Positions 10,338-46,368 of a stretch of DNA of 47,060 bases are shown one piece after another; the first letter of the stretch is position 1, and every line of letters starts with the position of its first letter. This stretch comes from Raillietiella orientalis (lineage: Eukaryota). The notes beneath the pieces were generated by a model, which searched no databases, was not told the origin of the DNA, and saw only the letters and a program-made list of their open reading frames with translations. The DNA is taken from assembly GCA_036172245.1 (NCBI GenBank), contig JAYWIR010000118.1, positions 62,001 through 109,060 on the forward strand, in the 5' to 3' direction. Both the position numbers and the translations under genes were made by a program.

Positions 10338-11410
10338 ACTTCGGCCGCGCCCGAGCACTCCAGGCCCTGGTCGTCGAGCAGACAAGCTGCTCCTGACTGC
10401 CAGACCTGGCGCTCGGCCTTGGCCTTGTACTCCGCAAAGTACCGGACGTCCGGGCATCGGAAGGATTGGCGGGCCTGCAGAAACTCTCTGCTGTTGGCCA
10501 CGCCTTCCCCGAAGCCACGGGAAAGCAGGCGCAAGGGGAACCGGCTGCAGAGCTCGCGGACCGATCTTTTCAGATCGTCCCAGTCCACGAGCTCTCGAAC
10601 GGCAGAGGTCCGGAGATGCTGGCGGAGGTGCTCCGCAGCCACCGGATTTCTCAACCAGTCAGCCGGCAACCTCCAGACGTGCGTCAGAGGGCCCTTGGCA
10701 GGCGGGAGTATCTCAAACTCCAGCCTGTAGTGGTCGGAAAGCTCGGACGGCACGGGACCTCTTCGACCCACCCGACAATGCAGGTGATCGTCGAGGAACA
10801 CATGGTCCGGCAAAGCACGCATTCCGGGATCGGCAGCTAGCAAATTCGAGGCGTGCACCGACGCGCACACCTTGTTCACCAGCCGTTTCTCCCGGCGACG
10901 GTGAGACTCCTTTGGTAGCGCGTGGACGCTGAAGTCCCCGGCTACGAGGTGAGCCACGTCGGGGCCGGAGTTGCTGAGCCAGCGGTCGCGCAGTCTCTCG
11001 AAAAACTCCAGTTTCTCGGTGTGACGCGCGGAGCCGCTCGGCGCGTACACGTTCGTGACGAAAAGGTTGATCGATTCGGACCACTTGAGAACAAGTTGGC
11101 CCACACGACCTTCTTCGTCGAAACAAACGCTCCGCACCGCTGCGGTCACCCTGCCCCGGACAAGGAATGTGACTCCGCAGGTATTCTGGGATCCTGACCC
11201 CCAATGGAGCGTCCCGCCTGCGCGAACTTGCAGATCGGCCGCTTGCTGCTCGGAGAGTGCGTGAATCTCCTGCAGCAGGGCCAGATCGAAGTCGCGCAAG
11301 ACGTTGGCAACCAATCGCCTCTTCTCGTTGTCCTGCAGCCCGTTGACGTTCCAACAGGCCATTCGGACGCGACGGGGAGAAGCGAGACCGCGCATTGCTG
11401 CTACGGACAT
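10338..11410 (-). pseudogene. Element F ORF2 N-terminus: APE (exonuclease III-like) endonuclease, truncated by element E
   Basis: Open frame with APE motifs. GDFN is mutated to GDFS; the paralogous copy Q retains GDFN. Confidence 0.88.
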
Positions 11411-12764
11411 GGAGGTGCGTTCCTCGTACCGTCCGGCGAGGCATCAGCCGGGAGCACGGCGGATGAGGTAGCGCAAGCGCTTCCTGTCCCTGCTGCGCCA
11501 CTCGCGGCCGGCTCGGTGGAGTCGAGGACCATTGCCTCGGGCTCCGAAGAGCATCGGGAACCGTTCCCGGCATGAGGCTCTTGCCTGGCAAGTTTTTGCT
11601 TGCGCGCAGCCCTGGCCTTGACCAAGGCTTGGCGAGCCTTAGCGCTGCCCTCGGACTCCACCTCGGAGTCCGAATTGCGCGCGCGCGGCGGCGGGCGTTT
11701 CGCCTGCCTCTTTGTTTGCTGGCAGCCCGGAGCTGGTCCAGCACTCTTAGAGGGTGCCTTCGTCGCCGATCCCCGTTTCGGGGTCACGGCTTCGGCAGCT
11801 CCCCTCTCGCCGCGGGTGTTTGCGGCGGCGCGCGCGGCGGCAGCAGAGGCTTTTCCTTGCGCCTCTCTGGGCGCGCGGGGTTGCCTCTTCACCCCACCTA
11901 CCTTTGTGATCGGGAAGTGGGAAGGATCGCGCGGTTTGCGCTCCTTCTTTCCCCCGACGAAGGTCCAGGCATCCTCGCCGCCTTCCTGTTTGCCCCGGTT
12001 GGGCGCGAGGGCTTCCAGGGTCCTTCGCATCCCTTTCAAGTCCTCGGATACGGCGATGGAGGCCAGTGTCTCCTTCGCCACGTCTGCCTTCTGCACCTCC
12101 TTACCGGGAGGTGCGGGCACAGTGGCGGGATTCTCGGGTGTCGCGCGAGGCTTTTCAGCCTTTGCTGGCGTTCGGCACGCCGTGGCCGGTTTGCCTGTCG
12201 CGGGCAAAGGACCGCGCGACCCCTTTTTCGACGCTCCGGTGGTCTTCCCGGGCGTGCCACCGCTATTTCGCTCCGGAGAGAGAGCGGACGAAAGCGGCGG
12301 TGGTTTTGCAGCTTGCCCGATGTTATCGGCGGGATGGGACGCTCGGGGCTTCACTGAAGCAGCCTGGAAAAGCTTCTTGTTCTTTCGCGCGGGATTTTGT
12401 GAAGCATTGCTCCGAGAATCGCCCGCGCAAGCGGACTTTTCACTTCTCCGCTGAGAATCCTCTTTCGCGCCTGATTTCTTCCCCGACGACGGGGCGGATG
12501 GAGTCGGCGCTGACGGCGATGTTGCGGGGAGGTTTCTCGCCCTCCTCTTTCGTTTTAGCTCGGCGCACTCGTTAGTCGAGTGGCCGAGCAGCTTACAGTA
12601 TCGGCAACTGCGTGTTGGGCACTTCCGCGGACGGTGGCCCTCCTTCCCGCAGTTGCCGCAAGCGGGGGTTTGCCCGGCAAACCGGAGATAGACGACGACG
12701 TCACCGAGGAGAATCTGCGAAGGCATGAGCCCCCGGTCGTCCATGGTGACGCGCGCCGTCGCAA
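11401..12764 (-). pseudogene. Element F ORF1, 5'-interrupted (two CCHC knuckles followed by a low-complexity basic tail)
   Basis: 447-aa open frame that begins mid-domain (IATARVTMDD...) at the 3' end of element G. Confidence 0.85.
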
Positions 12765-12794
12765 TTCACACCCGGATGTGCCGGGGCATTTATT
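12765..12794 (-). other. 3'-terminal AATAAA + stem-loop (element G)
   Basis: aataaa tgccccgg cacat ccgggtg tgaa. Confidence 0.85.
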
Positions 12795-14881: not shown

Positions 14882-14890
14882 TCGGCTAGA

Positions 14891-14902
14891 GCGGACGTGT
14901 TT
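14891..14902 (+). promoter_or_regulatory. 5'-terminal motif GCGGACGTGTTT (element H)
   Basis: 9 nt from the element's 5' junction. Confidence 0.55.
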
Positions 14903-16219: not shown

Positions 16220-16250
16220 AATAAACGCCCCGGCGAAATCCGGGTAAAAA
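16220..16250 (+). other. 3'-terminal AATAAA + stem-loop (element H)
   Basis: aataaa cgccccgg cgaaat ccgggt aaaaa. Confidence 0.85.
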
Positions 16251-16416
16251 TTGACGGGGGAGACGAGCTTGCTTGGCTTTGTGGACTTACGTCCACCCTT
16301 CTTGCGCGGTGCCGTGGAAACGGAGTCTGCGCTTCCGGTCTCCACCTCGGGATCGGAAGTGGGGGACTCCTGAGGGGAGGCGGGACGCCTTACGGCCTTG
16401 TTGCCAGCCTTGGAGG
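16251..16416 (-). mobile_element. Element I, left piece: ORF1 C-terminal fragment
   Basis: Reverse complement matches element L ORF1 at ~41248-41412. Continues at 33892 after the inserted element J. Confidence 0.85.
16407..16416. repeat. Target site duplication of element J (gccttggagg), left copy
   Basis: Identical 10-mer at 33892-33901. The homologous uninterrupted ORF1 in element L has it once. Confidence 0.85.
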
Positions 16417-16447: not shown

Positions 16448-19400
16448 GTTAAAACTCTACATCCGCGGTACAAGGCCTTGCTCACGACCATATCCACTGG
16501 ACCTGCCGGGACGCCGCGACGCAGCCCAGCGTAGCGTTCCTCAGCAGCGAAGGGGGATGGGGATAAAACAAAAAGAAAAATAAAAAAATAAACAGACAAA
16601 AAGAAGTTGGAGGGCAGGGAAGGGATCACTAAACGCTTTGAGGAGGTCCCATCCGTTGAAGGATGCGCTCTCGGTCCGTCCGTATATCCGCCAGTTGGGG
16701 CCATCCGGAAGCTCTACGCATAAAGCGTTGGGCGCATGTGGCGACATCCCTCGCGTGTGGACCCACTCCTTCGTTATTGGCGTCGCTCCATGCCGTTACG
16801 ATGCCACGGAAACAGCACAAGGCTGCGATGGCTGCGGCTGGCTGCAGTGCGTCCTTCAGGAAGAATGGCCGAAGAACGTCTCTGGAGGTGCTCCCCGTAG
16901 GGAGCACGAGGTTCGCCCCGAACCGTTCCCAGAGGGGTCGAATGGCAACACTGTCCACAATAATGTGGGAGAGCGATTCCCACTCGCCGCACCTGACACA
17001 CTCAGTATCCACAGTTCCCCTTGTCCAGTGAAAGCGGCGTGCGTTGCAGGGTAAACCCCAGTGGAGCAGTAGAAACGCCGACTCTTGCAACTTAAGGGGT
17101 AGGATCTTGGATTCTTTCAGTACTGGGGGCCACTTCAGCACATCCGTATGGATGACGAGCAGCTCGCCCCATCTCATCAAACCACGCGGCTGGACGCTCG
17201 GGGTCGTGGCGTCCGCCATTCTTCTGTGGTCCAACCGCTAAACATCTTCTCCCTCCATGATATCTGGCAGGTGACTTGCCACATCGGCCTCTGGAGATCC
17301 TGAAGCGCCCTCAGGAGGTAGTGCATCGCCGTAGCAAGGAACGTCTTCAACGCCCACCTGCGACTCCGAAGAAATTCCAGTATTTCCCGCAGGGTGCGGT
17401 TGGCGTATGGGCAGATTCGCAGCCAGTTCATGTTGTTTTCACTGCTCCGGTTCTGCTTAGCCCATGTGCCAGCAAACTCTTCCAGCCAGGCGGAAGATAT
17501 GGCGAGGCCACAAAACATCCAACCGTTGTCTTCGCCAGGGTTGCTATGCATCCGAGCATAAGGACGCATCTTCGGATCTTCCGGCCAGGGCACAGAAGAA
17601 ACGATGCGAGTCCTTCGCATCGGGACACACGCCTGGCGAGGAGGCGGGCCGGAACGCACCAAGGGGTGCTCCACATCTTCGCTGCGATGGCGAGGGTTCG
17701 CCACCGCAGCTGGATTTCCACGCGCTCCAGCGTCAGGAGGCCAAGGCCGCCGTCCCTACGCGGAACGCACAAGTCCTTCAGAGGGACTCGGGGCCTTCCC
17801 TTGCCACAAAGGGCTATGCGGAGGAGGTCCTTTGTCTTCTTTTTGCATTCTCTGGGGGCGGGGCAAACAAAAAGCAAGTAGCGGAGGATGAAGGCCGCAA
17901 AAGCGTTCCAAACCGCGGCCCGTTCCGGCAAGTGAAACTTGCCTTCCAGGAACGGGCCGATCGCCGTCTCAACTTTTTGAAGACAGCTGGACCACGCTTT
18001 CGCAGGGGAGTAGTCACCCAACCGCACACCAAGGTACTTCAGGCACCTCGTCGTGGGGTTCCCTAGACGGACCCAGTCCTGATGCCCTACCAACGCCGCA
18101 CCAACTGCCACCACCGACGACTACGCCCTGTTGACCTGCAGTCCTTTGATACGGCTGAGCAGATCAAAGAAGTCTCCGACCGCCTTCTCCGGGGTGGACA
18201 TAGGTAAAAGGAGCAGAAGATCGTCGGCGTACGCTGCTACGGCGGGCGTGGCGGGGCACGAGCTCGGCTAGGGTGCCAAGGTAAACCTGTACGCTCTCAG
18301 CACCAACTCAATGTAGGTGCTGAAGAGCAGGGGACTAAGGTTGTCGCCCTGCCGTATGCCCCGCCGTAACAGCACGATGTACGCCTCCTGACTGATAGAA
18401 AAGATGGAGATCATCGCATTCCATTAGCAAGAGCGCAGGTAGGTAATCAAGGAGGATGGGAAGCCCATGCGACCCAGGAGCTCCAACAAAAGCACCTGGT
18501 CAACACAGTCGAACGCCTTATGGAGATCGACTGCGAGCGCTAAGGCCCCCTTCCCTGCCCAAGTGTCCATTCCCTACCCTGCTTGCGGCCCCAAATTGGG
18601 GTTGCCGATTTTTCCTCTCCCTTCCTTTTGACACCTCTGCGCGTGTATCCATGTCCTCGCGAAGAAGAGGTTGGCATCCATGCTTCGCCCGGGAACAGCA
18701 TAAGTCTGCTCCGGGCTAATTATGGATTCTGCCACCTGCCCCGGACGCGAAGCCCATAGCCCCGCAACCAACTTGGCGTCCGTATTCACAATCGTGATCG
18801 GACGCCAGTTGTTCAAATTCCTAAGGTCTCCCCCTTTCGGAAGGAGCCTCACTCTGGCTGAACGAAACGAGGCGGGAACATCGCCTTCGCCTCGGATCAG
18901 CCTTGTCAGCTGAAGCAGCAGGGGTGCCAGCTCTTCCGCAAAGCTCTGAGAGAACTCCGCGGGCAAGCCGTCTTACCTTGGAGCTTTCCGCCTCTTGAGC
19001 CTTTTGATACCGGCGAGAATTTCGCCGGTGGTAAAAGGCTCATCGAGGCTTAACGACTCCTCCTCCCCTATTCTCGCGACACCGTCCGGAAGCAAGAGCC
19101 AAGAAACATCTTGATCCGGGGGCGCCCTGGCGTAAAGGAAGCAATAATAACTCCGCACGAGATACCGTACCGACGCCGGGGACGAACATTCCCGGCACTG
19201 GTCGTTCAGAAAGCTGGCCGACCCGGATTGCCAGACTTGGCGTTCGGCCCCGGCGCGGTACTCGGCCAGGCGACGGGCATTAGGAGTTCGCTCGTAGCTA
19301 CGGGCCTGTAAATAGGCCCGATGGTTGCGAGGACCCTAGCCGAATCCGGAGGGCAGGCGGTCCAGGGGGAACTGCTCGCAGAACTCCCGGACCGATTCCT

Positions 19401-19751
19401 TAAAAAGGTCCCAGTCCTAAAGAATCGAGAGCGTGACGTCTCTCAGGTATTCGCGAAGGTGTTCCTTTGCACCTGAGAGTCGCAACCAGTCCGCGGGTAG
19501 ACGCCAGTCCCTGAATGGCAGTCCTTTGTCGCGATGCCGCATCTGGAAATTTAACCGGGAATGGTCCGACAACGTTGATGCAACCCTCCCTTGTTTGCCG
19601 ACACGTTAACACAGTTCAGCGTCGAGGAACACGTGGTCGATGCTGCGGACCATTCCCTTTTCACCCGCGACCAAGTTTTGCGCACGCATGGCGGCGCACA
19701 ACTCGTTCATAGCGTTCACTTGTGTTTCCGGCTCACCTGTTTGCAGGCGGA

Positions 19752-19760
19752 GATTGAAAT
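19752..19760. repeat. 9-bp TSD gattgaaat, copy 1 of 3
   Basis: Also at 25667-25675 and 31579-31587. Its reverse complement lies in the GDFN codons of element J's endonuclease. Confidence 0.9.
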
Positions 19761-19790
19761 TCATCACCCGGTCTAGCCGGGGAGTTTATT
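19761..19790 (-). other. 3'-terminal AATAAA + stem-loop (element K1)
   Basis: aataaa ctccccgg ctaga ccgggtg atga, then the TSD. Confidence 0.85.
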
Positions 19791-20072
19791 AATAATAATA
19801 AGCTGGTCAGGGACAATGCCCCAACCAACAGAACGACAGAGAACACAGAAAATCTACCGGCACGCAGTCCTGTTAAACAAACCGCTCGCAGCGTGGGGGG
19901 AATGAGGGGAAACAAACAAAAATCAAAAACTGGGGGGAAGGGAAAAGGGTTTTTGGTTAGGCTCCGTACTCACGGGGACTTATACGATGAGCACCTGAAA
20001 TGTTCCGGAGCCTATATGGAGGCGGGTGTAAAAACAAAATACAAATTTAGTTTATGGAGGGTAGGGCAATGA

Positions 20073-23000
20073 TCACCGGGTTGGCCGCTGATGAGGGTGT
20101 GTAAACCGGCGGTGTATTGCGGCGAGATTCCTTTTTGTCTCCTCTGTCAAATGAGGCCATCTAGCGGATGCTCCCATGTAGAAGGATGCTTTGCTGATTA
20201 CCTCTTGGTACTATTCGTTAATTACCAACGCCTGGCGGACAAAAGCTATCGCGCGTATGCAACCGATGGTTGTAATCCTTGCGCTTAGTGACAGCCCGCT
20301 CGGCGTGAAGAATCGTCGCAGAAAGTCTCTTGCGGTGTCCACGGGATGCAATAGTGCTGTTGCCAGCCTACGCCACAGTCCTTGTAGGACACCGCAGTCC
20401 AGAAGTAGGTGCGGAATCGACTCCGTCGATCCGCACCGAACGCAGTTCGCAGACGCAAGTCCCCCGGAGTCACGATGCCAACGCTCGTTGCACTGAAAAC
20501 CCCAGTGAACGAAAAGCAGCACAACTTGTTTCCAAGGAAGAGGGAGCAGCGAACTGTCAATACACTGTGGAGGGACTACAAGTTCTTCGGAATTGACAGC
20601 AAGTTCTTCTGCCCACCATAGGAGTCCCTTTGCAGTAAAACGAGGAGTGGCGGCGTCCGCCAACTCACTCGTCTTCCAGGCGCCAAGGATTTTGGTTTTT
20701 CCCGCTATCGTGCAAAAAACCTCCCACCTCGCCGGTTGGTAACTGTCGTTTCTTGCCCTAAGGGCAGACAGCGCTGCGGCAAGAGGCATGGCAGCCAGGG
20801 TAGAAAACTTCACCTCGTCCTGCAGTACTTCTTCCAAGGATCGTGAAAAAAATTGACGCAGGGGCCGAAGATCCTCAGGGCGTATTCCTTGGATCGCCGA
20901 CCAGGATTCAACAGACTCCTGCCGCCAAGCTTCAAAGTTTATTGGGCGGCAGGAGATCCACGAGTGAGCATCCAGAAGTGCGGTCAACTGCCGCAAAGGA
21001 GACCCGAAACCCCGCTTCCTGTATTGAGTGCTCGGCAAAAGCGAGAGAAATCCCTAGCTGCCGGCGCATCTCCGCAGGAGAATGCGGGATGGCACACACA
21101 GGGGGGATGTCCATAGCTGGGCACACAGTGCCAGCAGTCGGAACTGCACCTGCAGTCCCATTCGCTCCATTGTCAAGATAAACAAACCAGCATTCCGACG
21201 CGGAGCTCACAAATCTTTAAGGCGGATTCTGGATCTCGCCGGACCCCAGAAAGCGTTCCTGAGCAGTCGTTTAGCCCGCTGTTTTGCCGCATAGGGGGGG
21301 TCAAAAACCAAAAACGGAGGACGGAGGAGGGGGGCCACAAAGGTGTTCCAAATAGTCGCCCGTTCCTGCAAGGTAAACTTGCCGTTAAAGAACTGGCTGA
21401 TGGCCAACTCTGCTTTCTGAAGACAGTCCGCTCACGCTTCGGCTGCGCCGAAAGCGCCCAACGGAACGCCAAGGTAATTAAAGTACCCGCCCGTGGGGAT
21501 CCCCAGGCGGATCCAGTCGGACTGCCCCTCCCACGACGTACCCACAGGAACGACCACGCTATTCTCTCTGTTCACGCTCACGCCCGCTCCCCGACGAATC
21601 AGGTCAAAGAAATCCTCGACACTGGACGCCGGGGTGGACATGGGAAGAATAAAAAGCAGGTCATCAGCGTAGGCGGCCACGGCAGGCGTTCCCGGGCAGG
21701 AGCTTGGCAACTGAGACAGCGTCAGCCTGTATGCTCTTAGCAGCAACTCAAAGAAGATGCTGAAGAGCAAGGGGCTTAAGCTGTCGCCCTGTCGGATGCC
21801 CTTACGAACGGGAATACCATACACGCGGCAGCCGCTGAAAGTAATGCACGTTAGCGCGTGGCGCCAGCACGCGCGCAAATACAGCAGGAGTTGCGCCGGG
21901 AACCCAAGGCGTTCCAGAAGCTCCAAAAGCAGCTTCTGGTATACGCAGTCGAACGCCTTGTGGAGATCGACCGCGACCGCCAAGGCACCTGGCGTTCCCT
22001 CCTGCCGTCGGCGCCTGTTCTTCTTGCCTGCGGCAGTGACTTTCGCAGCAGCCTGGCTTTGCTGCGCCACAACTTCCTGCAGCTGCATCCATGTACGCGC
22101 GAAAAGGATGTTCGCCTTCATGGATCGTCCCGGAACCGCGTAGGTTGGTTCCGGGCTCACCACAGATTCCGCGATACTTTCTAACCGCGCGACCCACAGC
22201 TTGGAAAACAACTTGACGTCCGAGTTCACCAAGGTGATCGGACACCAGTTGTTAAGTTGACGCAAGTCCCCGCCTTTCGGCAGGAGACGCCCCTTCGCTG
22301 AGCGGAAGGAATCCGGGACATTCCCGGATTCACTCATCAGCGTCGCGAGTTTCAGAATCAAGGGAATGAGGTCCACTTCAAAGCACTGATAAAACCCTGC
22401 AGGAAGCCCATCATCGCCTGGCGCCTTTCGTCTCTTCAGCCCAGCGTTGGCGTACGAAAATTCATCCGCCGTGAAAAGCTCGTTGAGACGTTCGCGTTCC
22501 TCCTCGCCGACAACACGAGCATCCTGAGACAGGAGTATCTCAGAAAGAATATCCTCCGTCAGGGATTCCGCGTACAGCGAGGAGTAGTAGCGTCTAACGA
22601 TGCGGTGTACTTCGGCTGGGGCCGAACATTCCTGGCCCTTGTCGTCCAACAAGCATGCTGCTCCGGACTGCCAGACCTGGCGCTCGGCCCTCGCCTTGTA
22701 CTCCGCAAGACGCTTGACATCCGCGTGTCTCGAAAACGTGCGGGCCTGCAGAAAGTCTCTACTGTTGGCCACGCCCTCTCCGAAACCGCGTGGAAGCCGG
22801 TGCAAGTGGAATTATCAACAGAATTCGCGGACAGATCTTTTGAGATCGTCCCAGTCCGCAAGTTCTTGAATGGCAAAGCCCCGGAGGTATCCACGTAGAT
22901 GCTCCGCAGCCTCCGGTTGGCTCAGCCAATCCGCCTCCATCCTCCAGCTTTGCAACGGAGGCCCCCTGCCTGGCGGAAGGATCTGAAACTCCAACCTGTG

Positions 23001-23666
23001 GTGGTCAGACAGCTCAGTCAACAATCTTTCTCTCCTGCCCACACGCGAATGCAGGTTTTCATCGAGGAAAACGTGATCGAGCGATCTTTCCATTCCAGGT
23101 TCGCTGACCATCAAGTTGGCGGCGGAAACGGACGCGCACATCTCGATGGGCAGCGCGCGCTCCCTCGGGCGGCTCCAATCGTCGGAGAGCAGGCGGACGT
23201 TGAAGTCCCCAGCGACGAGGTGCGCCACTTGGAAGCCGGAGTTGTTGAGCCACTGGCTCTGCACCTCACCAAAGAAAGCTACTCTTTCTTCGAGGTAGCG
23301 AGAGCCACTCGGCGCGTAGACGTTCGTAACGACGAGATCGATGGACTCGGACCACTTGATGACAAGCTGGCCTATCCGTCCATCGTCATCGAAACGAACA
23401 CTACGCACCGCTTCCGCCGTTTTTCCTCTTACGAGGAACGCGACGCCGCACGTGTGTGCGCCGTCGCACCGCCAATGTAGCGTTCCGCCTGCGCGCTCCT
23501 CGATTTCGGCTGCCTGCTCGTCGGAGATTACGTGAATCTCCTGCAGGAGCGCGAGGTCGAAGGGGCGCAGTGCGTTGGCTACTAATCGCCTCTTCTCGTC
23601 GTTCTGTAGTCCGTTCACGTTCCAACACGTTACGGACAGACGACGAGAAGACGCGATTCCCCGCAT
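20073..23666 (-). pseudogene. K1 ORF2 (APE endonuclease, reverse transcriptase, CCHC finger; ~1190 codons) with premature stops
   Basis: ORF pieces 22815-23666 (EN), 21432-22805 (RT with AAYADD), 21207-21407 and 20211-21038 (CVRCGSTESIPHLLLDC). Confidence 0.92.
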
Positions 23667-25492
23667 TACTGCTGGGAAGGTGGCGGCTTTTTGCTCGCTT
23701 TATCCGGCGAGCAGACGGCGAGTAGCACGACTGGCTGGAGAGGACGGTCGCCACCGTCCTCTGTTGTGCTGCATGCATGTAATGCCTCCACGCCAGGCTG
23801 AATTCCGTCGGGTTTCGTGGAGACTTCGCGTTGCTTCGCGGCGAGCGTTGCCTGGCTGCCTACTTTTGATCGGCGCGCACACGCTTTCGAACGAGTTGTC
23901 CTCGTCTCGGTGATCGGAACGGCATCCATTTCGGAGTTCGACCGGCGCATGTTCGATCGGGTTTCGGCCTTCCGCGGAGCAGTGACAGGTTCTGCTGGAT
24001 TGACATCTGTCCTGTTTTCGTTTTCCGTCACCAGAGCATCGCTTTTGGTGACGGCTGCTTTCCCGGCGCGCGCGTTTTCAGCGTGCTCACGCGCAGAAGC
24101 ACGAGGGACCTTTGCTGAAGTCTTCTTTACTTCATTACGGTTCCTCACTTCGCGTGGCGCCGTAAATGGAGATTGTGCTCCATGGCCATCTTTGAAGCCA
24201 TCCGCGTCTTTGGACGGGAGCACTTTCGATGGCTCCGACACGCTCGTCATGGACGCTGCTTTCGGAAGGGCTTTTAATCCCTTCGTTGGCATGGCATCCG
24301 CGCCAGTCGACAGCTTGCTCTCCGACTGCGACGGCGTGAGATTTTTCTCCACTTTCGCGGTGTTCGATCGCGACGCGGATTTTTTTTTGCCGACTTTCGA
24401 AGTCGACACGGCACAACTTTTCTTACCCGATTTGGGCTTCTCAGCCACTGCAGGAGGTGTAGGAATGGATCTGACGGTACTGGAAGTGTCCTTACCGCCG
24501 TTGTCCATTGACGTCCCCGCCGGTTGCTCGAACTCCGAGAGAGCCGGGCGTGCTTGGGAAGGACAGCTATTGCGCCTAGGGGGACTTACCCTTGCCCCGG
24601 ATTCCCCGCACCCTTTCTTTTGCGGCTCCCCTGCCGCGAGAGGGGGTGCGCAGGGCTTCGCGTGCGAGGTTTCCTGCTGCTTTGGGGCGACATTCCGCCT
24701 CGCGTTTTTACCGAATTTCTGCCGTGGGGTCTCCAGGTTTTTCGCAGATTTTTTCTTCTTATCCGCGCTTTGTTTTTTAAAATGGAGCTCCGCGGCTGCC
24801 TTTTTTCGCAAAAGATCCGGGCAATTTTTCAATTGGTGCCCGGATAGTTTGCAATAACGGCATTTTCCAGAGGGGCATTTATCCAAACAATGCCCCTCCT
24901 TCCCGCATTGCTCGCACGTTTTTACTTTGCCCACGAACCACAGGTGAACGACCGTGTCATTCACCTGTAGTTTGGTAGGCAGCAGACGGCGGTCCGGCAT
25001 TGTAAGCCGGGCTCCAGCGACTCCGCTGTGTATGGACGGGAAGTCCTTGAGGTTGCTACGCACCCTCCACAGCGCATGGACCGTGGCGAATTTCGCCAAC
25101 GCGTTCCGAATATCAGTATCGGAGATTTCCGACTCGATGTCGAAAATCTCCACCACAAATGAGTCGTCCATGGCGGCCGGGAAGACCTTCTGGCCACGGA
25201 TCGACAACGGGGTGCGCAGCAAGCGTTGCACAAGTGCAGCGTCTTTGCAACGCACCTTGAAATAGCCCATGTCTTTTACGGGCATAATGGTGAGAAGGTC
25301 CTCCTCCCGCACGCCAACACGGGTCAGTTCATCGTTGAACTGATTCCCGTCGCGCGCAGAAAGAAAACCACTCACCTTATATCGGAGAGGAGGTCTATAG
25401 CCTTGGGCTTCGTATGCCCGCAACTCCGACTCGTCAAGTGGTTTCCCTTCGACGGCTGCTGTGGCAGCAACGTCAGCAAAACTCCTCTCCAT
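23666..25492 (-). CDS. K1 ORF1 protein (608 aa open; the N-terminal extension seen in K2 is cut by a TAG near 25506)
   Basis: CEQCGKEGHCLDKC and CRYCKLSGHQLKNC knuckles; near-identical to K2 ORF1. Confidence 0.8.
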   Translation of the reverse strand: MERSFADVAATAAVEGKPLDESELRAYEAQGYRPPLRYKVSGFLSARDGNQFNDELTRVGVREEDLLTIMPVKDMGYFKVRCKDAALVQRLLRTPLSIRGQKVFPAAMDDSFVVEIFDIESEISDTDIRNALAKFATVHALWRVRSNLKDFPSIHSGVAGARLTMPDRRLLPTKLQVNDTVVHLWFVGKVKTCEQCGKEGHCLDKCPSGKCRYCKLSGHQLKNCPDLLRKKAAAELHFKKQSADKKKKSAKNLETPRQKFGKNARRNVAPKQQETSHAKPCAPPLAAGEPQKKGCGESGARVSPPRRNSCPSQARPALSEFEQPAGTSMDNGGKDTSSTVRSIPTPPAVAEKPKSGKKSCAVSTSKVGKKKSASRSNTAKVEKNLTPSQSESKLSTGADAMPTKGLKALPKAASMTSVSEPSKVLPSKDADGFKDGHGAQSPFTAPREVRNRNEVKKTSAKVPRASAREHAENARAGKAAVTKSDALVTENENRTDVNPAEPVTAPRKAETRSNMRRSNSEMDAVPITETRTTRSKACARRSKVGSQATLAAKQREVSTKPDGIQPGVEALHACSTTEDGGDRPLQPVVLLAVCSPDKASKKPPPSQQ

Positions 25493-25648
25493 TGGCGAGA
25501 AAGACTAAGTGGAGGCGGCCGTCGGTTCCGCGATTGGAGATCCGGATGCTGTTCCTCCAACTTCGGTAGCTTCAAGTTGGGTCGACATCGTCGTCAAAGT
25601 GTACGACGCCAAGATGAAGCGGATGAAAGCACGGAGACGAGAGCGAAG

Positions 25649-25666
25649 AAAAACACGTCCGCACTC
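25649..25666 (-). promoter_or_regulatory. 5'-terminal motif GAGTGCGGACGTGTTTTT (element K1)
   Basis: Begins immediately after the TSD. Confidence 0.6.
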
Positions 25667-25675
25667 GATTGAAAT
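25667..25675. repeat. 9-bp TSD gattgaaat, copy 2 of 3 (between K1 and K2)
   Basis: Sole spacer between the K1 5' end and the K2 3' end. Confidence 0.9.
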
Positions 25676-25705
25676 TTATCACCCGGTCACGCCGGGGCGT
25701 TTATT
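25676..25705 (-). other. 3'-terminal AATAAA + stem-loop (element K2)
   Basis: aataaa cgccccgg cgtga ccgggtg ataa, then the TSD. Confidence 0.88.
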
Positions 25706-25988
25706 AATAATAATAAACTGGTCAGGGACAATGTCCTTAACCAACAGAACGACAGAGAACATAGAAAAATTACCGGCACGCAGGCCTGGTAAACAAACCG
25801 CTCGCAGCGTGGGAGGAATGAGGGGAAACAAACAAAAATCAAAAACTGGAGGGAAGGGTAACGGGTTTTCGGTTAGGCTCCGTACTCACGGGGATTTAAA
25901 CGATGAGCACCTAAAATGTTCCGGAGCCTATGGGGACGCGGGTGTAAAAAGAAAATACAAAAATAGTTTATGGAGGGTAGGGCAATGA

Positions 25989-28900
25989 TCACCGGGTTGG
26001 CCGCTGCTGAGCGTGTGTAAACCGGCGGTGTATTGCGGCGGGAATCCTCTTTGTCTCCTCTGTCAAATGAGGCCATCTAGATGATGATCCCATGTAGAAG
26101 GATGCTTTGCTGATTACCTCTTGGTGCTGTCCGTTGATTACCAACGCCTGGCGGACGGAAACTATCGCGCGTATGCAACCGATGGTTGCAATCCTTGCGC
26201 ATAGTGAAAGCCCGCTCGGCGTGAAGAATCGTCGCAGCAAGTCTCTTGCGGTGTCCACGGGATGCAATAGTGCTGTTGCCAGCCTACGCCACAGTCCTTG
26301 TAGGACACCGCAGTCCAGAAGTAGGTGCGGAATCGACTCCGTCGATCCGCACCGAACGCAGTTCGCAGACGCAAGTCCCCCGGAGTCACGATGCCAACGC
26401 TCGTTGCACTGAAAACCCTAGTGAACGAAAATCAGCACGTCTTGTTTCCAAGCAAGGGGGAGCAGCGAACTGTCCATACACTGTGGAGGGACTACAAGTT
26501 CTTCGGGGGTGACAGCAAGTTCTTCTGCCCACCGGAGGAGTCCCTTTGCAGTAACACGAGGAGTGGCGGCGTCCGCCAACTCACTTGTCTTCCAGGTGCC
26601 AAGGAGTTTGGTTTTTCCCGCTATCGTGCAGGAAACCTCCCACCTCGCCGGTTGGTAACTGTGGTTTCTTGCCCTGAGGGAGACAGCGCTGCGGAAAGAG
26701 GCGTGGCAGCCAGGGTAGAAAACTTCACCTCGTCCTGCAGTACTTCTTCCAAGGATCGTGGAAAAAATTGGCGCAGGGGGCGAAGATCTTCAGGGCGTAT
26801 TCCTTGGAACGCCGCCCAGGATTCAACAGACTCCTGCCGCCAAGCTTCAAAGTTCATTGGGCGGCAGGAGATCCACGAGTGTGCTTCCAGAAGTGCGGTC
26901 AACTGCCGCAATGGAAACCCGAAACCCCGCTTTCTGTATTGAGTGCCCGGCAGAAGCGAGAGAAATCCTCCGCTGCCGGCGCATCTCCGCAGGAGAATGC
27001 GAGCTGGCACACACAGGGGGGATGTCCATAGCTGGGCACACAGTGCCAGCAGTCGGAACTGCACCTGCAGTCCGATTCGCTCCATTGTCAGGATACCCAA
27101 ACCAGCATCCCGACGCGGAGCTGACAAATCTTTAAGGCGGATCCTGGATCTCGCCGGACCCCAGAGAGCGTTCCTGAGCAGGCGCTTAGCCCGCTGTTTT
27201 GCCGCATAGGGGGGGTCCAAAACAAAAAACAGGGGACGGAGGAGGGGGCCACAAAGGTGTTCCAAATAGTCGCCCGTTCCTGCAAGGTAAACTTGCCATT
27301 AAAGAACGGGCTGATGGCCAACTCTGCTTTCTGAAGACAGTCCGCCCACGCTTCGGCTGCGCCGAAAGCGCCCAACGGAACGTCAAGGTACTTAAAGTAC
27401 CCGCCCGTGGGGATCCCCAGGCGGATCCAGTCGGACTGCCCCTCCCACGACGTACCCACAGGAACGACCACGCTCTTCTCTCTGTTCACGCTCACGCCCG
27501 CTCCCCGAAGAATCAGGTCGAAAAAATCCTCGACACTGGACGCCGGGGTGGACATGGGGAGCAGAAGAAGCAGGTCATCATCGTAGGCGGCCACGGCAGG
27601 CGTTCCCGGGCAGGAGCTTGGCAAGTGAGACAGCGTCAGCCGAATGCTCTTAGCATCAACTCAAAGAAGATGCTGAAGAGCAACGGGCTTAAGCTGTCGC
27701 CCTGTCGGATGCCCCTACGAACGGGAATACCATACACGCGGCAGCCGCTAAAAGTGATGCAGGTTAGCGCGTGGCGCCAGCACGCGCGCAAATACAGCAG
27801 GAGTTGCGCCGGGAACCCAAGGCGTTCCATAAGCTCCAAAAGCAGCTTCGGGTTTACGCAGTCGAACGCCTTGTGGAGATCGACCGCGACCGCCAAGGCA
27901 CCTGGCGTTCCCTCCTGCCGTCGGCGCCTGTTCTTTTTGCCTGCGGCAGTGACTTTCGCAGCAGCTTGGCTTTGCTGCGCCACAACTTCCTGCAGCTGCA
28001 TCCATGTACGCGCGAAAAGGATGTTCGCCTCCATGGATCGTCCCGGACCCGCGTAGGTTTGTTCCGGGCTCACCACAGATTCCGCTATTCTTCCTAACCG
28101 CGCGACCCACAGCTTGGAAAACAACTTGACGTCCGAGTTCACCAAGGTGATCGGACGCCAGTTGTTAAGTTGGCGCAAGTCTCCGCCTTTCGGCAGGAGA
28201 CGCACCTTCGCTGAGCGGAAGGAATCAGGGACATTCCCGGATTCACTCATCAGCGTCGCGAGTTTAAGCATCAAGGGAATGAGCTCCACTGCAAAGCACT
28301 GATAAAACTCTGCAGGGAGCATATCCTCGCCTGGCGCCTTTCGTCTCTTCAGCCCAGCGATGGCGGACGAAAATTCATCCGCCGTGAAGGGCTCGTCGAG
28401 ACGTTCGCGTTCCTCCTCGCCGACAACACGAGCATCCTGAGACAGGAGTATCTCAGAAAGAATATCCTCCGTCGGGGATTCCGCGTAGAGCGAGGAGTAG
28501 TAGCGTCTCACAATGCGGCGTACTTCGGCTGGGGCCGAACATTCCTGGCCCTTGTCGTCCAACAGGCATGCTGCTCCGGACTGCCAGACCTGGCGCTCGG
28601 CCCTCGCCTTGTACTCTGAGAGACGCCCGACATCCGCGCGTCTCGAAAACGTGCGGGCCTGCAGAAAGTCTCTACTGTTGGCCACGCCCTCTCCGAAACC
28701 GCGTGGAAGCCGGTGCAAGGGGAATTGGCAACAGAACTCGTGGACAGATCTTTTGAGATCGTCCCAGTCCGCAAGTTCTTGAATGGCAAAGCCCCGGAGG
28801 TATCCACGTAGATGCTCCGCAGCCTCCGGTTGGCTAAGCCAATCCGCCTGCATCCTCCTGCTTTGCAACGGAGGCCCCTGCCTGGCGGAAGGATCTCAAA

Positions 28901-29578
28901 CTCCAACCTGTGGTGGTCAGAAAGCTCAGTCAACAATCTTCCTCTCCTACCCACACGCGAATGCAGGTTTTCATCGAGGAAAACGTGATCGAGCGATCTT
29001 TCCATTCCAGGTTCGCTGACCATCAAGTTGGCGGCGTGAACGGACGCGTACATCTCGATGGGCAGCGCGCGCTCCCTCGGGCGGCTCCAATCGTCGGAGA
29101 GCAGGCGGACGTTGAAGTCCCCAGCGACGAGGTGCGCCACTTGGAAGCCGGAGTTGTTGAGCCACTGGCTCTGCACCTTACCAAAGAAAGCTACTCTTTC
29201 TTCGAGGTAGCGAGAGCCACTCGGCGCGTAGACGTTCGTAACGACGAGATCGATGGACTCGGACCACTTGATGACAAGCTGGCCTATCCGTCCGTTGTCA
29301 TCGAAACGAACACTACGCACCGCTTCCGCCATTTTTCCTCTTACGAGGAACGCGACGCCGCACGTGTGTGCGCCGCCGCACCGCCAATGTAGCCTTCCGC
29401 CTGCGCGCTCCTCGATTTCGGCTGCCTGCTTGTCGGAGATCACGTGAATCTCCTGCAGCAGCGCGAGGTCGAAGGGGCGCAGGGCGTTGGCTACTAATCG
29501 CCTCTTCTCGTCGTTCTGCAGTCCGTTCACGTTCCAACACGTTACGGACAGACGACGAGAAGACGCGATTCCCCGCAT
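25989..29578 (-). pseudogene. K2 ORF2 (EN-RT-CCHC) with frameshifts and YADD>YDDD
   Basis: ORF pieces 28508-29578, 27636-28868, 27088-27624, 26621-27265 and 25989-26267. Confidence 0.92.
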
Positions 29579-31500
29579 TACTGCTGGGAAGGTGGCGGCT
29601 TTTTGCTCGCTTTATCCGGCGAGCAGACGGCGAGCAGCACGACTGGATGGAGGGGACGGTCGCCACCGTCCTCTGTCGTGCTGCATGCATGTAATGCCTC
29701 CACGCCAGGCTGAACCGCGTCGGGTTTCGTGGAGACTTCGCGTTGCTTCGCGGCGAGCGTTGCCTGGCTGCCTACTTTTGATCGGCGCGCACACGCTTTC
29801 GAACGAGTTGTCCTCGTCTCGGCGATCGGAACGGCATCCATTTCGGAGTCCGACCGGCGCATGTTCGATCGGGTTTCGGCCTTCCGCGAAGCAGTGACAG
29901 GTTCTGCTGGATTGACAGCTGTCCTGTTTTCGTTTTCCGTCACCAGAGCATCGCTTTTGGTGACGGCTGCTTTCCCGGCGCGCGCGTTTTCAGCGTTCTC
30001 ACGCGCAGTTGCACGAGGGACCTTTGCTGAAGTCTTCTTTACTTCATTACGGTTCCTCACTCCACGTGGCGCCGTAAATGGAGATTGTGCTCCATGGCCA
30101 TCTTTGAAGCCATCCGCGTCTTTGGACGGGAGCACTTTCGATGGCTCCGACACGCTCGTCATGGACGCTGCTTTCGGAAGGGCTTTTAATCCCTTCGTTG
30201 GCATGGCATCCGCGCCAGTCCAGAGCTTGCTCTCCGACTGCGACAGTGTGAGATTTCTCTCTGCTTTCGCGGTGTTGGATCGCGACGCGGATTTTTTTTT
30301 GCCGACTTTCGAAGTCGACACGGCGCAACCCTTCTTACCCGATTTGGGCTTCTCAGCCACTGCAGGAGGTGAAGGAATGGATCTGACGGTACTGGAAGTG
30401 TCCTTACCGCCGTTGTCCATTGGCGTCCCCGCCGGTTGCTCGAACTCCGAGAGAGCCGGGCGTGCTTGGGAAGGACACCTATTGCGCCTAGGGGGACTTA
30501 CCATTGCCCCGGATTCCCAGCACCCTTTCTTTTGCGGCTCCCCTGCCGCGAGAGGGGGTGCGCAGGGCTTCGCGTGCGAGGTTTCCTGCTGCTTTGGGGC
30601 GACATTCCGCCTCGCGTTTTTACCGAATTTCTGCCGTGGGGTCTCCAGGTTTTTCGCAGATTTTTTCTTTTTATCCGCGCTTTGTTTTCCAGGATGGAGC
30701 TCCGCGGCTGCCTTTTTTCGCATGAGATCCGGGCAATTTTTCAATTGGTGCCCGGATAGTTTGCAATAACGGCATTTTCCAGAGGGGCATTTATCCAAAC
30801 AATGCCCCTCCTTCCCGCATTGCTCGCACGTTTTTACTTTGCCCACGAACCACAGGTGAACGACCGTGTCTTTCACCTGTAGTTTCGTGGGCAGCAGACG
30901 GCGGTCCGGCATTGTAAGCCGGACTCCAGCGACTCCGCTGTGTATGGACGGGAAGTCCTTGAGGTTGCTACGCACCCTCCACAGCGCATGGACCGTGGCG
31001 AATTTTGCCAACGCGTTCCGAATATCAGTTTCGGAGATTTCCGACTCGATGTCGAAAATCTCCACCACAAATGAGTCGTCCATGGCGGCCGGGAAGACCT
31101 TCTGGCCACGGATCGACAGCGGGGTGCGCAGCAAGCGTTGCACAAGTGCAGCGTCTTTGCAACGCACCTTGAAATAGCCCATGTCTTTTACGGGCATAAT
31201 GGCGAGAAGGTCCTCCTCCCGCACGCCAACACGGGTCAGTTCATCGTTGAACTGATTCCCGTCGCGCGCAGAAAGAAAACCACTCACCTTATATCGGAGA
31301 GCAGGTCTATAGCCTTGGGCTACGTATGCCCGCAACTCCGACTCGTCGAGTGGTTTCCCTTTGACGGCTGCTGTGGCAGCAACGTCAGCAAAACTCCTCT
31401 CCATTGGCGAGAAAGACGAGGTGGAGGCGGCCGTCGGTTCCGCGATTGTAGATCCAGATGCTGTTCCTCCAACTTCAGTAGCTTCAAGTTGGGTCGACAT
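29578..31500 (-). CDS. K2 ORF1 protein, intact 640 aa (MSTQLEATEV...PPPSQQ), gag-like with two CCHC knuckles
   Basis: Uninterrupted frame from the ATG at 31500 to the TAA overlapping the ORF2 ATG. Confidence 0.88.
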   Translation of the reverse strand: MSTQLEATEVGGTASGSTIAEPTAASTSSFSPMERSFADVAATAAVKGKPLDESELRAYVAQGYRPALRYKVSGFLSARDGNQFNDELTRVGVREEDLLAIMPVKDMGYFKVRCKDAALVQRLLRTPLSIRGQKVFPAAMDDSFVVEIFDIESEISETDIRNALAKFATVHALWRVRSNLKDFPSIHSGVAGVRLTMPDRRLLPTKLQVKDTVVHLWFVGKVKTCEQCGKEGHCLDKCPSGKCRYCKLSGHQLKNCPDLMRKKAAAELHPGKQSADKKKKSAKNLETPRQKFGKNARRNVAPKQQETSHAKPCAPPLAAGEPQKKGCWESGAMVSPPRRNRCPSQARPALSEFEQPAGTPMDNGGKDTSSTVRSIPSPPAVAEKPKSGKKGCAVSTSKVGKKKSASRSNTAKAERNLTLSQSESKLWTGADAMPTKGLKALPKAASMTSVSEPSKVLPSKDADGFKDGHGAQSPFTAPRGVRNRNEVKKTSAKVPRATARENAENARAGKAAVTKSDALVTENENRTAVNPAEPVTASRKAETRSNMRRSDSEMDAVPIAETRTTRSKACARRSKVGSQATLAAKQREVSTKPDAVQPGVEALHACSTTEDGGDRPLHPVVLLAVCSPDKASKKPPPSQQ

Positions 31501-31560
31501 CGTCGTCAAAATGTACAACGCCAAGATGAAGCGGATGAAAGCACGGAGACGAGAGCGAAG

Positions 31561-31578
31561 AAAAACACGTCCGCACTC
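31561..31578 (-). promoter_or_regulatory. 5'-terminal motif GAGTGCGGACGTGTTTTT (element K2)
   Basis: Begins immediately after the TSD. Confidence 0.6.
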
Positions 31579-31587
31579 GATTGAAAT
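31579..31587. repeat. 9-bp TSD gattgaaat, copy 3 of 3
   Basis: Abuts the K2 5' end and continues into host EN (AHLIAGDFN on the minus strand). Confidence 0.9.
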
Positions 31588-32046
31588 CTCCCGCTATCAG
31601 GTGAGCCTTCCGCACGTTCGTGTCCGCCAGCCAGTCGCGCTTCAGGGAATCCAGCAGCCTCGTACGGTCGCTGTATCCCTGTTTACCGCTGGGGGCGTAC
31701 ACATTCGTGACGATCAATTCGATCGAGTCGGACCAGCTGAGAATCAGCTGACCGACCCGAGCGTCGTCATCGAAGCGCACGCCCTTCACGGCCGCGTCGA
31801 TGGCCGGCTTCACGAAGAACGCGACCCCGCAGGTGTTGCGGAGGCCGCACCCCCAATACAGCCGACCCCCCGCGATCGTCTCGATCTCCTGGGCGTCTGC
31901 CGCGGTGATCACGTGGATCTTCTGCAGCAGGGCCAGGTCGAGCTCACGCAGGGTGTCGGCCGTATCTCGCCTGTTACCGTCGTCGCGCAGCCCGTTGACG
32001 TTCCAACAGGCGGCGCGAATCCGACGGCGACTGGCGAGCCCAGGTG

Positions 32047-34160: not shown

Positions 34161-34164
34161 GTGC

Positions 34165-35539
34165 TTCCACTGGGATGTCCACGGAGCCCCTGCAGCAAAA
34201 GATGGATGTGGAGGCTGCTACTGGCAGTGGAGACTATACTCCAGATGCGCGCATCTCGGGATAACCAGCAAGCGCGCCGGAATAAACTGCGAAAGCAAGA
34301 GCCTGTTGCCGGAGGCGGTTCCGGCTCCTGCACGGAGACCGAGGCGATGATCCTTGGCTCCCAGGACTCAGCTGGGTGCGATGTGGCGGCGAACGGGAGC
34401 GATTCCGCTTCCCAATCCGCTCTCTTATCAGATGACTTCTCGCAGAAGGGGCGAGTAGCGCGCCGCCATGTTTGCAGCAGTAATGCGTGGACTCGAGTCC
34501 TCTCGTCGCATCGACGTGGCCTGTTGGAAAGTCAACGGGCTGCGTGATGCAGACAAAAGTCGGACTGTAGCCAATGCTTTGCGCGCGCTAGTTCTGGTGC
34601 TGCAGCAGGAGATACATAGCATCTCCGAACGGCAGGCATTGGATCTGCAAGAGTGCGCGGGCGGGACGCCACACTGGCGGCGAGACTCCGCGCACACGTG
34701 CGGAGTCGCGTTCCTCGTCCGAAGCAGGGTGGCAGAGGCGGTGGGGAAGGTTTGTTTCGACGAGGAAGGTCGTGTGGGCCATCTTGTCGTCTAGTGGTCA
34801 GAATCGATCGACCTTGTGGTTACGAACATCTACGCGCCGAGTAGCGGCCGGCATTACAACCAGCGATTTGCATTCCTGGGTGGCCTGCGCAGCCGCTGGC
34901 TCGCTGTCTCGGGCCCTAACGTGGCGCACCTCCTTGCAGGAGACTTCAACCTCCACCTGCTAACAGAGGAGAGATGCCGCTTGAGGGAGAAGCAACTGGT
35001 GAGCCAGGTATGCGCGTCCGTTCGCGTGCAAAACTTGCTTGCTGGTGAGTTCGGGATGGAGAGCTCGCCGGACCATGCGTTCCTCGATGAGCACCTGCTC
35101 TCACGAGTAGGTCGGAGAGGGCGCCCGCTGTCCGCGATTTGGGATCATCGGTGACTGGAGTTCGAGCTCCTCCCGCCTGGAAAAGTGCCTCCGATGGATG
35201 TCTGGAGGTTGGCGGCCGACTGGCTTAGCAATTCGGAGGCGGTGGAGCATCTTTGGCAACACCTCCGGGGCTTCGCCATCCGTGAACTCGAGAACTGGGA
35301 CGATCTGAAAAGATCGGTCCGCGAGTTCTCCTGACGGTTCCCCTTCACCTGCTTCCCCGCGGCTTCGTCGAAAGTGTCGCGAACAGCAGATCCTATCTGC
35401 AGGCGCGTACCTTCTCCCGATGCACGGACGTCTGGCGTCTGGCGGAGTACAAGGCCAGGGCCGAACGCCAGGTTTGGCAGTCTGGAACGGCTTGTCTTCT
35501 CGATGACGCTGGCCAGAAATGCTCGGCTGCAGCCGGAAT
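34165..35539 (+). mobile_element. Element M: internal LINE segment (ORF1 tail, degenerate endonuclease, linker); left boundary approximate
   Basis: TAATG at 34481-34485; ACWKVNGL, QEIH, NIYAP, GDFN and DHAF. Ends at CSAAAGI next to the 3' end of element N. Confidence 0.88.
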
Positions 35540-35569
35540 TTGTCACCCGGATATGCCGGGGCATTTAAT
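35540..35569 (-). other. 3'-terminal ATTAAA + stem-loop (element N)
   Basis: attaaa tgccccgg catat ccgggtg acaa. Confidence 0.85.
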
Positions 35570-38170: not shown

Positions 38171-38171
38171 C

Positions 38172-41792: not shown

Positions 41793-41822
41793 TTCTCACC
41801 CGGTCACGCCGGGGCGTTTATT
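41793..41822 (-). other. 3'-terminal AATAAA + stem-loop (element P)
   Basis: aataaa cgccccgg cgtga ccgggtg agaa. Confidence 0.85.
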
Positions 41823-44800: not shown

Positions 44801-46368
44801 AGAAAATCTCTGCTGTTGGCTACGCCCTCTCCGAAGCCGCGCGGAAGCTGGTGCAAGGGAAACCGTCAGGAGAACTCGCGGACCGATCTTTTCAGGTCTT
44901 TCCAGTCCTCGAGCTCATTTATGGCAAAGCCGAGGAGGTACTGGCGAAGATGGTCAGCCGCCACAGGTTGGCTTAGTCAGTCTGCCGGCATCATCCAAAA
45001 ACAGTTTGGAGGCCCTCTGCCTGGCGGGAGCAACTCGAACTCGAGCCTGTTGTGGTCTGAAAGCACGGACGGCACGGGACATCTCCGACCCACTCGACAG
45101 AGCGAGTGTTTATCAAGGTATACGTGGTCCGGCGTTGCTGCCATAACAGGGTCGCTAGCGAACAAGTTGCACGCGTGCACGGACGCGCACATCTCTTCCG
45201 GTAGCAACTTTTCCCTTTTGAGGGATCTATTCTCGGAAAGCAATTGGACGTTAAAGTCCCCGCGATGAGATGGGCTACATTTTGATGAGATCGAGTGAGC
45301 CAATGGCTTTGAAGGGTTCCGAAGAACTCAATCCTTTCAACCCATCGTCCAGCACCGCTCAGCGCGTACACGTTGGTTACGACAAGGTCGATCGAGTCGG
45401 ACCACTTGAGTACAAGCTGTCCCACTCGGCCTTCCGTGTCAAAACTAACGCTGCGCACCGCGCTCGCCAAGGTTCCTCGCACGAGGAAAGCGACGCCGCA
45501 CGTACGTGCAACGCCGCACCTATAAAGTAGCATTTCGCCCGCGCGCCGTTCGATTTCGGCAGCCTGCTCTCCGGAGATGCTGTGAATCTCCTGCAGGAGC
45601 GTCAAGTAGAAGGCGCGCAGAGCGTCAGCCACAAGTCGCCTCTTCTCCTCGTGTTGGAGCCCGTTGACGTTCCAAGACGTTACGGCAACACGACGAGAAG
45701 ACGCGATTGCCCTCATCACGGCTGGGAAAGCGAGGCCGTAGTGCTCGCCTCACCCGGCGAGCGGGCAGTAAGCAGCACGACGGGCTGGAGGGCAAGGTCG
45801 CCACCGGCCTAAACTCTGCTGCACGTAATCGGGTGCTCCTTCCCGGGTGCAGAACCTGTGCGTTCCGGGGTGAGGACTCGCCGTTCCGCGGCTTGTGTGT
45901 CACGCCTCAGGGCTTCAGCCCTGCGGGCGCTCGCTCCCGAGCGAGTGACGCGTCGTTCAGCAGCGTTATCGGACTTCTTTGCGAAGTCTGATGCTCGCAC
46001 GATCGACGTGCGCTTGCATCCGTCCGATTGTACAGGAATCGTCTTCTCGGCGGTCACATAAGCGGACTTGCTTGCGTTCAAGACACTGGCTTTTTCCTTG
46101 GAAGAGTCACAAGCCGAGCGTGTTTTCGTAATTCCGCGACTGCTTTTTCCTTTGGAAGAGCTCAGGGATAGAGGTTGTGGAGCTGTTTTTGCGGATTTTT
46201 CTTTCCTCCTCTCCACAAGCTTCCATTCGCCTTCGCGATTTTTGGAGGCTTCCGCGACAAGGGTTGCCGAAACCTCCGGGATTTCCGCTGCGTTCTCGGG
46301 GGGCGTTGCTTTCGCTACGACTTTAAAAGGCGGCAACGGAGTCACCTTCTTGACAGTCAAAAGATCGC
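41793..46368 (-). mobile_element. Element P: 5'-truncated or interrupted LINE (ORF1 tail, whole degenerate ORF2, 3' end)
   Basis: TGATG at 45714-45718; WNVNGL, LQEIH, GDFN, SDH, AAYADD and CLTCGEIESFPHFLLDC. Stem-loop at 41793-41822. Confidence 0.92.

Follow-up and report, generated by a model that had tools for sequence, protein, structure and literature searches.

A shortened APE-type endonuclease predicted to lack the canonical hairpin in nested L1-type LINEs of Raillietiella orientalis

Introduction

Can the apurinic/apyrimidinic (APE)-type endonuclease (EN) of a long interspersed nuclear element (LINE) dispense with its betaB6-betaB5 hairpin and still serve precise insertion? This question is raised by a stretch of 47,060 nucleotides from Raillietiella orientalis (GCA_036172245.1, contig JAYWIR010000118.1, positions 62,001 to 109,060; “the window” is this whole stretch), which is filled on both strands by diverged copies of one kind of retrotransposon (GC 0.54-0.61). 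An earlier note, made from the letters of this DNA, had claimed that the EN encoded by these elements lacks about 17 residues where the hairpin normally lies. EN sequence was present in the copies K1, K2, F, M, P (in two frames), Q, L and H; K1, the best-preserved copy, encodes in its second open reading frame (ORF2) an Exo_endo_phos domain followed downstream, in the same frame, by RVT_1. The EN-bearing stretches and the two aspartates used as landmarks were as follows.

22980..23639, minus strand: K1 EN domain, ORF2 residues 10-229, reading frame intact; D154 at 23205-23207 and D197 at 23076-23078, spacing 43
28892..29551, minus strand: K2 EN domain, 96% identical to K1 EN; Asp pair at 29117-29119 and 28988-28990, spacing 43
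10709..11368, minus strand: F EN domain, with GDFS in this copy; Asp pair at 10934-10936 and 10805-10807, spacing 43
34510..35169, plus strand: M EN domain, with two in-frame stops; Asp pair at 34942-34944 and 35071-35073, spacing 43
44872..45716, minus strand: P EN domain, in two frames with a frameshift right before GDFN; Asp pair at 45256-45258 and 45127-45129, spacing 43
46538..47053, plus strand: Q EN, of the F family, 96.8% identical to F in DNA, truncated past residue 172 by the end of the window
31544..32041, minus strand: L, 5' half of a host EN gene, ending at ..AGDFN where K2 starts
19378..19761, minus strand: H EN part, 3' half of the host EN gene of L, from the DFN codons onward, spacing 41

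Spacing of the two aspartates

Every EN copy was translated, and a script counted how far apart the GDF(N/S) Asp and the DH(V/A)(F/Y) Asp lie. The exact spacing of 43 residues claimed earlier was found in K1, K2, F, M and P (five copies, four families), and all of these had the (S/W)DH His 68 residues past the first Asp. H, a fifth family, had spacings of 41 (Asp-Asp) and 66 (Asp-His); Q and L stop before the segment and were left outside the counts. The short form is thus lineage-wide, as had been supposed, in the sense that all families seen in the window carry it. The four families were 57-69% identical to K1 in protein and none had an insertion or deletion in this otherwise fast-changing segment, so that chance does not explain the constant 43.

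The distance of 60 between D145 and D205 in human L1 EN was confirmed indirectly: phmmer placed the two Asp residues of the variant LR1 at 145 and 203, and LR1 is 2 aa shorter than the wild type (PMC1950540; papers given by PMC number are cited, here and below, for those passages of them that were available). R1Bm EN, with Asp-126 and Asp-186, also has a spacing of 60 (PMC1919474).

An exhaustive HMMER search gave 287 matches at E <= 0.001, and 150 of these that were listed, plus one further match, made up a set of 151 relatives. Both motifs were borne by 84 of the 151, with spacings of 45-75 (mode 60-63); the other 67, fragments or proteins without a recognisable motif, do not enter this range. 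The 43-residue form occurred in none of the 84 measurable listed relatives, and Tx1L, L1, R1Bm and TRAS1 all keep the hairpin. The sole listed relative below 50 (P0004, 45) was without the helix, with FTH...SRID kept.

Among the HMMER matches, the only close one was a 106-aa N-terminal fragment that ends before the segment, and nearly all the others aligned only to residues 10-160. A homologue search returned one weak ExoIII match at near lengths and one weak match at longer lengths, a metagenome scan with the K1 EN gave 437 pattern matches of which none was confirmed, and the ESM Atlas yielded generic Exo_endo_phos clusters only. A close relative covering this part of the EN was not found in the collections searched, which hold few eukaryotic transposon proteins (Repbase and Dfam lie outside them).

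Predicted structure and place of the missing residues

The K1 EN matched Pfam PF03372 over residues 15-222 (E 5.4e-13; 49.6 bits, cut-off 24.5). Structure prediction with AlphaFold2 gave a model of high confidence (predicted local distance difference test, pLDDT, 93.5 overall and ~95 over residues 181-200), which keeps the L1-EN/APE fold, a four-layer alpha/beta sandwich, and in which the hairpin ladder is missing. As a control, P0031, a typical L1-like EN among the relatives, was folded in the same way (pLDDT 96.1).

Because phmmer, MAFFT and hhalign disagree on the place of the gap (phmmer opens it at L1 174-187, MAFFT splits it in two and hhalign splits it otherwise), the missing residues were located from the secondary structure assigned by DSSP to the two models. 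In the K1 model betaB4 (147-154) is followed by a 12-residue loop, alphaB2 (167-178), a strand (182-184), coil (185-191), a helical turn (192-194) and betaB5 (197-202); in the control, betaB4 (135-140) is followed by a 19-residue loop, a helix (160-172), the LxD ministrand (175-177), the WR helix (178-182), coil, a ladder (191-192/199-200) and betaB5 (203-208). Twelve residues, with no beta ladder, thus separate the small LxD-type strand of K1 from its catalytic Asp, vs. 25 in the control and likewise 25 in L1 (D179-D205). The segment concerned is given below.

23079..23204, minus strand: K1 short segment from GDFN to the catalytic Asp, residues 155-196, comprising the betaB4-alphaB2 loop, helix alphaB2 (167-178), ministrand (182-184) and loop (185-196)
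23079..23114, minus strand: K1 residual loop LMVSEPGMERSL, residues 185-196, where the WR helix and betaB6-betaB5 hairpin would stand

If N184 of K1 is taken as the equivalent of L1 D179, 13 of the 17 missing residues would have been lost from the stretch that joins the LxD ministrand to the catalytic Asp, and the other four from the betaB4-alphaB2 loop, which is 4 residues shorter than in L1 and 7 shorter than in the control. The loss of ~17 residues at the hairpin site would accordingly be upheld by the models for the larger part only. The usual D-x-W/YR..HP...YT..SRID segment, described as absent in the earlier note, is also missing from the AlphaFold2 model, which is predicted to contain neither the WR helix nor the hairpin ladder. 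A hidden Markov model (HMM) of 67 typical ENs matched K1 at nodes 4-156 and 202-239 only, with 26 K1 residues vs. 45 nodes in between; the control P0031 matched it end to end (nodes 4-240).

The best solved match of the K1 model was human L1 EN (Foldseek E 1.8e-16; VIA Z 25.4, root-mean-square deviation 2.5, 214 residues of the 235-residue chain), to which the control aligned more fully (VIA Z 32.4, root-mean-square deviation 2.0, 231 of 232 residues); about 21 L1 residues have no alignment partner in K1, vs. 1 in the typical relative. ExoIII and APE1 gave VIA Z values of 23-24 with the K1 model, and a wide structural search with it found no sharper match outside the L1/ExoIII group. Comparison of loop lengths between the K1 and control models revealed no compensating growth of another loop of the DNA face.

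The reading that we favour, and hold to be reasonably probable from these models, is that of an active EN without the canonical hairpin. It has to be weighed against a retained hairpin of reduced form: the LxD/WR..HP excursion would have been deleted, 182-184 would be betaB6 and 185-196 a hairpin loop of about R1Bm-type length, and target reading would be conventional. The alignment made by phmmer, of K1 181-197 to betaB6-loop-betaB5 of L1, fits such a short hairpin (181-189 pair with KSTEYTFST of L1, and 190-198 with the loop and SKIDH of LR1), though posterior probabilities are low in this part. The resulting topology is common to both readings. Topologically, a 12-residue link between adjacent antiparallel strands is a wide hairpin loop, and it carries conserved P190, G191 and M192; DSSP, however, assigned one helical turn and no ladder to 185-196. 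Strand 182-184 starts three residues past alphaB2, like the LxD strand of the control (2) and unlike its betaB6 (19), N184, which is invariant, falls opposite the LxD Asp, itself nearly invariant, and neither the Thr/Phe nor the Ser anchor is present. A reduced hairpin was consequently considered rather unlikely. Other points also weigh against a loss of the hairpin: the three sequence aligners each place the gap elsewhere; the alignment behind the AlphaFold2 model was shallow (38 rows, 10 from this lineage); what strand 182-184 would pair with, and how far loop 185-196 would extend, are putative readings of the model; the remaining 12-residue loop, with invariant N184, L185 and M192, may still reach the DNA; and the ENs of R1Bm (crystal chain of 214 residues) and TRAS1 (219) are equally short overall, which makes the total size unremarkable.

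Comparison with known endonucleases

Fold and linked reverse transcriptase (RT) place the domain with the L1-type APE endonucleases; the K1 RT was closest to human L1 ORF2p (E 1.8e-37), the only protein against which RT similarity was measured. Bovine DNase I, a non-specific nuclease of another family, has an Asp-Asp spacing of about 44, which would mean that the superfamily has a short connection at this place in other members too; DNase1L3 matched the K1 model with Z 17.8. Tx1L of Xenopus is a target-specific LINE of the L1 group which lands in another transposon. Its hairpin is full-sized and, in a graft on L1 EN, adopts an extended reverse turn (PMC1950540).

Human L1 EN (PDB 1VYB, 7N8S) has the same catalytic residues as the K1 EN, together with an IYRTLHP turn and a hairpin (193-202) anchored by T192 and S202; turn, ladder and anchors are all missing in K1. 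In L1 the hairpin places P197/H198 in the minor groove and, together with the alphaB1-betaB3 loop, shapes a cleft that holds the strand about to be cut (PMC8565326). The engineered variant L3G, in which the loop is replaced by three glycines, is nearly inactive and has lost the preference for supercoiled DNA (PMC1950540, Repanas et al. 2007). L3G resembles the K1 EN in the absence of the hairpin loop but keeps betaB6 and the WR turn; the K1-type form, by contrast, is natural, conserved under selection and found in precisely inserted elements.

The ENs of the site-specific LINEs R1Bm (2EI9) and TRAS1 (1WDU) are compact and of the same fold (VIA Z 19.9 and 20.2, respectively). Both keep the hairpin (residues 176-183 in R1Bm), which adds to the cleavage pattern in each, and R1Bm also keeps Thr-175/Phe-176 (PMC1919474). 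The authors of the R1Bm work call the protruding betaB6-betaB5 hairpin common to the structurally known LINE ENs, a feature that the K1 EN would fail to show, judging by the predicted structures. No report of a natural hairpin-less LINE EN was found in the open-access literature searched, relative to which the form appears to be new; the nearest case, and the largest natural shortening found there, is one of 2 residues in the ENs of plant RTEs, discussed as possibly altering cleavage specificity (PMC6007223).

Site-specific insertion

The insertion sites of the K elements were read from the following features.

19761..25667, minus strand: K1 element, ~5.9 kb, with ORF1 at 25492-23666, ORF2 from 23666 and a 3' end ..CCGGGTGATGA
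25676..31579, minus strand: K2 element, head-to-tail with K1 and 95.7% identical to it
31580..31587, minus strand: ATTTCAAT, first copy of the target site duplication (TSD), in the host DFN codons; further copies at 25668-25675 and 19753-19760

K sits in sense orientation in the D-F-N codons of the EN gene of a sister LINE, with an 8-bp duplication. L and H are the halves of this one host gene (ORF2 residues 3-156 and 154-744, respectively; H whole 19761-17995, L 32041-31544): the host 5' of K2 reads ..GCGGGAGATTTCAAT (A-G-D-F-N), ATTTCAAT stands between K2 and K1 and again past K1, thus flanking both copies, and the host resumes past the last K copy with CTCCGCCTG.. (L-R-L). Given this 8-bp TSD at the G-D-F-N codons within a sister LINE, the K elements were regarded as site-specific; their target sequence, as known from the window, is GGGAGATTTCAATCTCCGC. 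The two K copies at one site could be repeated hits, or a single insertion whose TSD was then struck again; the tandem has the look of the latter.

K ends in ..CCGGGTGAT(A/G)A, without poly(A), and its 3' end CGGGTGAT matches the host sequence CGGGAGAT, directly upstream of the TSD, at 7 of 8 positions. This match would fit a pairing with the target, by either the template RNA or a read-through of it; in R1-type elements such pairing between template RNA and target plays a role.

Other insertions were also present in the window. One antisense element interrupts both F and M (at 10337 and 35540), in each case past ORF2 residue 353, and F plus insert and M plus insert are 84% identical over ~3 kb (8622-11607 vs. 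37259-34272), which represents either a duplicated composite or one site hit twice. At 860-960 a host RT is broken directly past AAAGCATTCGATTT (K-A-F-D codons) by an antisense insert, and the EN gene fragments 5341-5514 and 41629-41799 (plus strand) are cut by antisense inserts at ~residue 65 and ~residue 56, respectively, two further target sites in the EN gene. The inserted elements of all families end in AATAAA, a short GC-rich inverted repeat (e.g. CCCGG-CGTGA-CCGGG) and GGGTGA and carry no poly(A). Between families the repeat varies in its loop and at some positions of its stem; it may be a 3' RNA structure read by the RT.

5507-5540, 41775-41805, 10300-10335, 35545-35575 and 925-955, and for K 19761-19800 and 25676-25715: 3' ends with AATAAA, repeat and GGGTGA

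Catalytic residues and selection

The catalytic motifs reported earlier as kept (WNVNG, LQE, NVYAP, GDFN, DH and SDH) were all present in K1 and K2, and changes attributable to decay were seen in single copies: GDFS in F; WKVNG, QQE, WDH and two stops in M; NVYAL and a frameshift right before GDFN in P. The conserved arrangement listed for R1Bm is Asn, Glu, Tyr, Asp, Asn, Thr, Phe, Asp, Ser, Asp and His (PMC1919474), and 9 of these 11 residues were kept in K1 and K2 (N16, E43, Y117, D154, N156, D197, S220, D221 and H222), so that the metal-binding and general-base residues are complete. The exceptions were the Thr/Phe pair of strand betaB6, which has no counterpart in either copy.

The ratio of nonsynonymous to synonymous substitutions (dN/dS, Nei-Gojobori) between families was 0.18-0.38 outside residues 157-196 and 0.37-0.81 inside, rough values in that dS is ~1, near saturation. 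Within families it was 1.0 for F/Q, as expected for decay after insertion, and 0.43 for K1/K2, on very few changes. Segment 157-196 evolves faster than the EN core, yet its length is constant across the four families, and N184, L185, M192 and D197 were invariant in 6 of the 6 copies that cover it. These sequence comparisons indicate purifying selection on the short form as the families diverged.

The missing Thr/Phe pair, part of the conserved AP-type active-site set, may mean impaired catalysis, and deletion of the loop nearly kills L1 EN (PMC1950540); the short EN might then be catalytically crippled, with insertion either EN-independent or through a nick made by another family. That every copy in the window is damaged somewhere, inside or outside the EN, is a further point against an active enzyme. 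We nevertheless consider a crippled EN very unlikely, in view of the 9 of 11 conserved residues, the low dN/dS between families outside the segment, the occurrence of the short form in every family of the window with no long-EN helper in view, and the exact 8-bp TSD at both K insertions, as staggered nicks would give. Segmental duplication of a single dead pseudogene bearing the deletion, in favour of which duplicated composites do exist in the window (F and M with their inserts, and the K1/K2 tandem), is an extremely improbable source of the constant 43, since the families differ by 31-43% in protein, show proportions of synonymous differences (pS) of 0.45-0.65 and dN/dS well below 1 (against 1.0 for F/Q), and lie in different hosts and orientations.

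Proposed mechanism

With an active EN lacking the canonical hairpin as the preferred reading, the following mechanism is proposed. In these nested L1-type LINEs, ORF2 would open with an APE-type EN which is still a working nickase, though trimmed on its DNA-binding face: the D-x-W-R..HP turn and the betaB6-betaB5 hairpin, including the Thr/Phe anchor, would have been cut from 25 to 12 residues and the betaB4-alphaB2 loop shortened by 4-7 residues, with the core sandwich kept. Such an EN would probably nick while itself reading less of the minor groove. The remnant, N184-L185 ... acidic residue-P-G-M192, may by analogy supply one groove-inserting side chain in the manner of APE1 Met270, which we take to sit in the loop equivalent to K1 185-196. 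Met270 of APE1 inserts its side chain (PMC7504742).

Site precision may come largely from elsewhere, either through pairing of the RNA 3' end or of a read-through with the nicked target, or through another part of ORF2p or ORF1p. The precise TSD insertion of K and the 7/8 match between CGGGTGAT and CGGGAGAT are circumstantial hints that target recognition might work differently, or that the short EN might be tied to the self-targeting, as had been supposed earlier. A minimal nickase whose target choice has moved off the hairpin, to RNA-target pairing or another ORF2p/ORF1p module, is put forward tentatively, as an unlikely possibility.

Other features of the K elements

A weak zf-RVT match was found near the C-terminus of K1 ORF2. 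The 608-aa ORF1 of K1 had no Pfam match at E <= 1, and ORF1 of K2 (29578-31524, minus strand) had just a faint zinc-knuckle match (E 0.21). The ORF1 stop and ORF2 start overlap as TAATG (K1 23664-23668, minus strand; K2 near 29576-29580); a stop-start overlap of this kind is said to serve translational coupling in SART1. The stretch directly after the EN (22818-22960, with equivalents in F, M, P and H), ending in DWDDLKRSVREFC, was better conserved between families than the EN loop region.

Significance

The hairpin is required for the activity of L1 EN (PMC1950540). A natural lineage that has spread and diversified without the canonical hairpin, and yet inserts exactly, bears on how much of the target choice of APE-type LINEs lies in the EN. 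The K1 EN is a small, testable enzyme, with an intact reading frame and a target sequence known from the window, and may be of interest for the re-targeting of LINE machinery. If target choice does lie off the EN, it would become understandable that sister families sharing this short EN each strike a different exact site in one another's genes, and the lineage would offer a natural case of LINE integration that is RNA-assisted and easily re-targeted.

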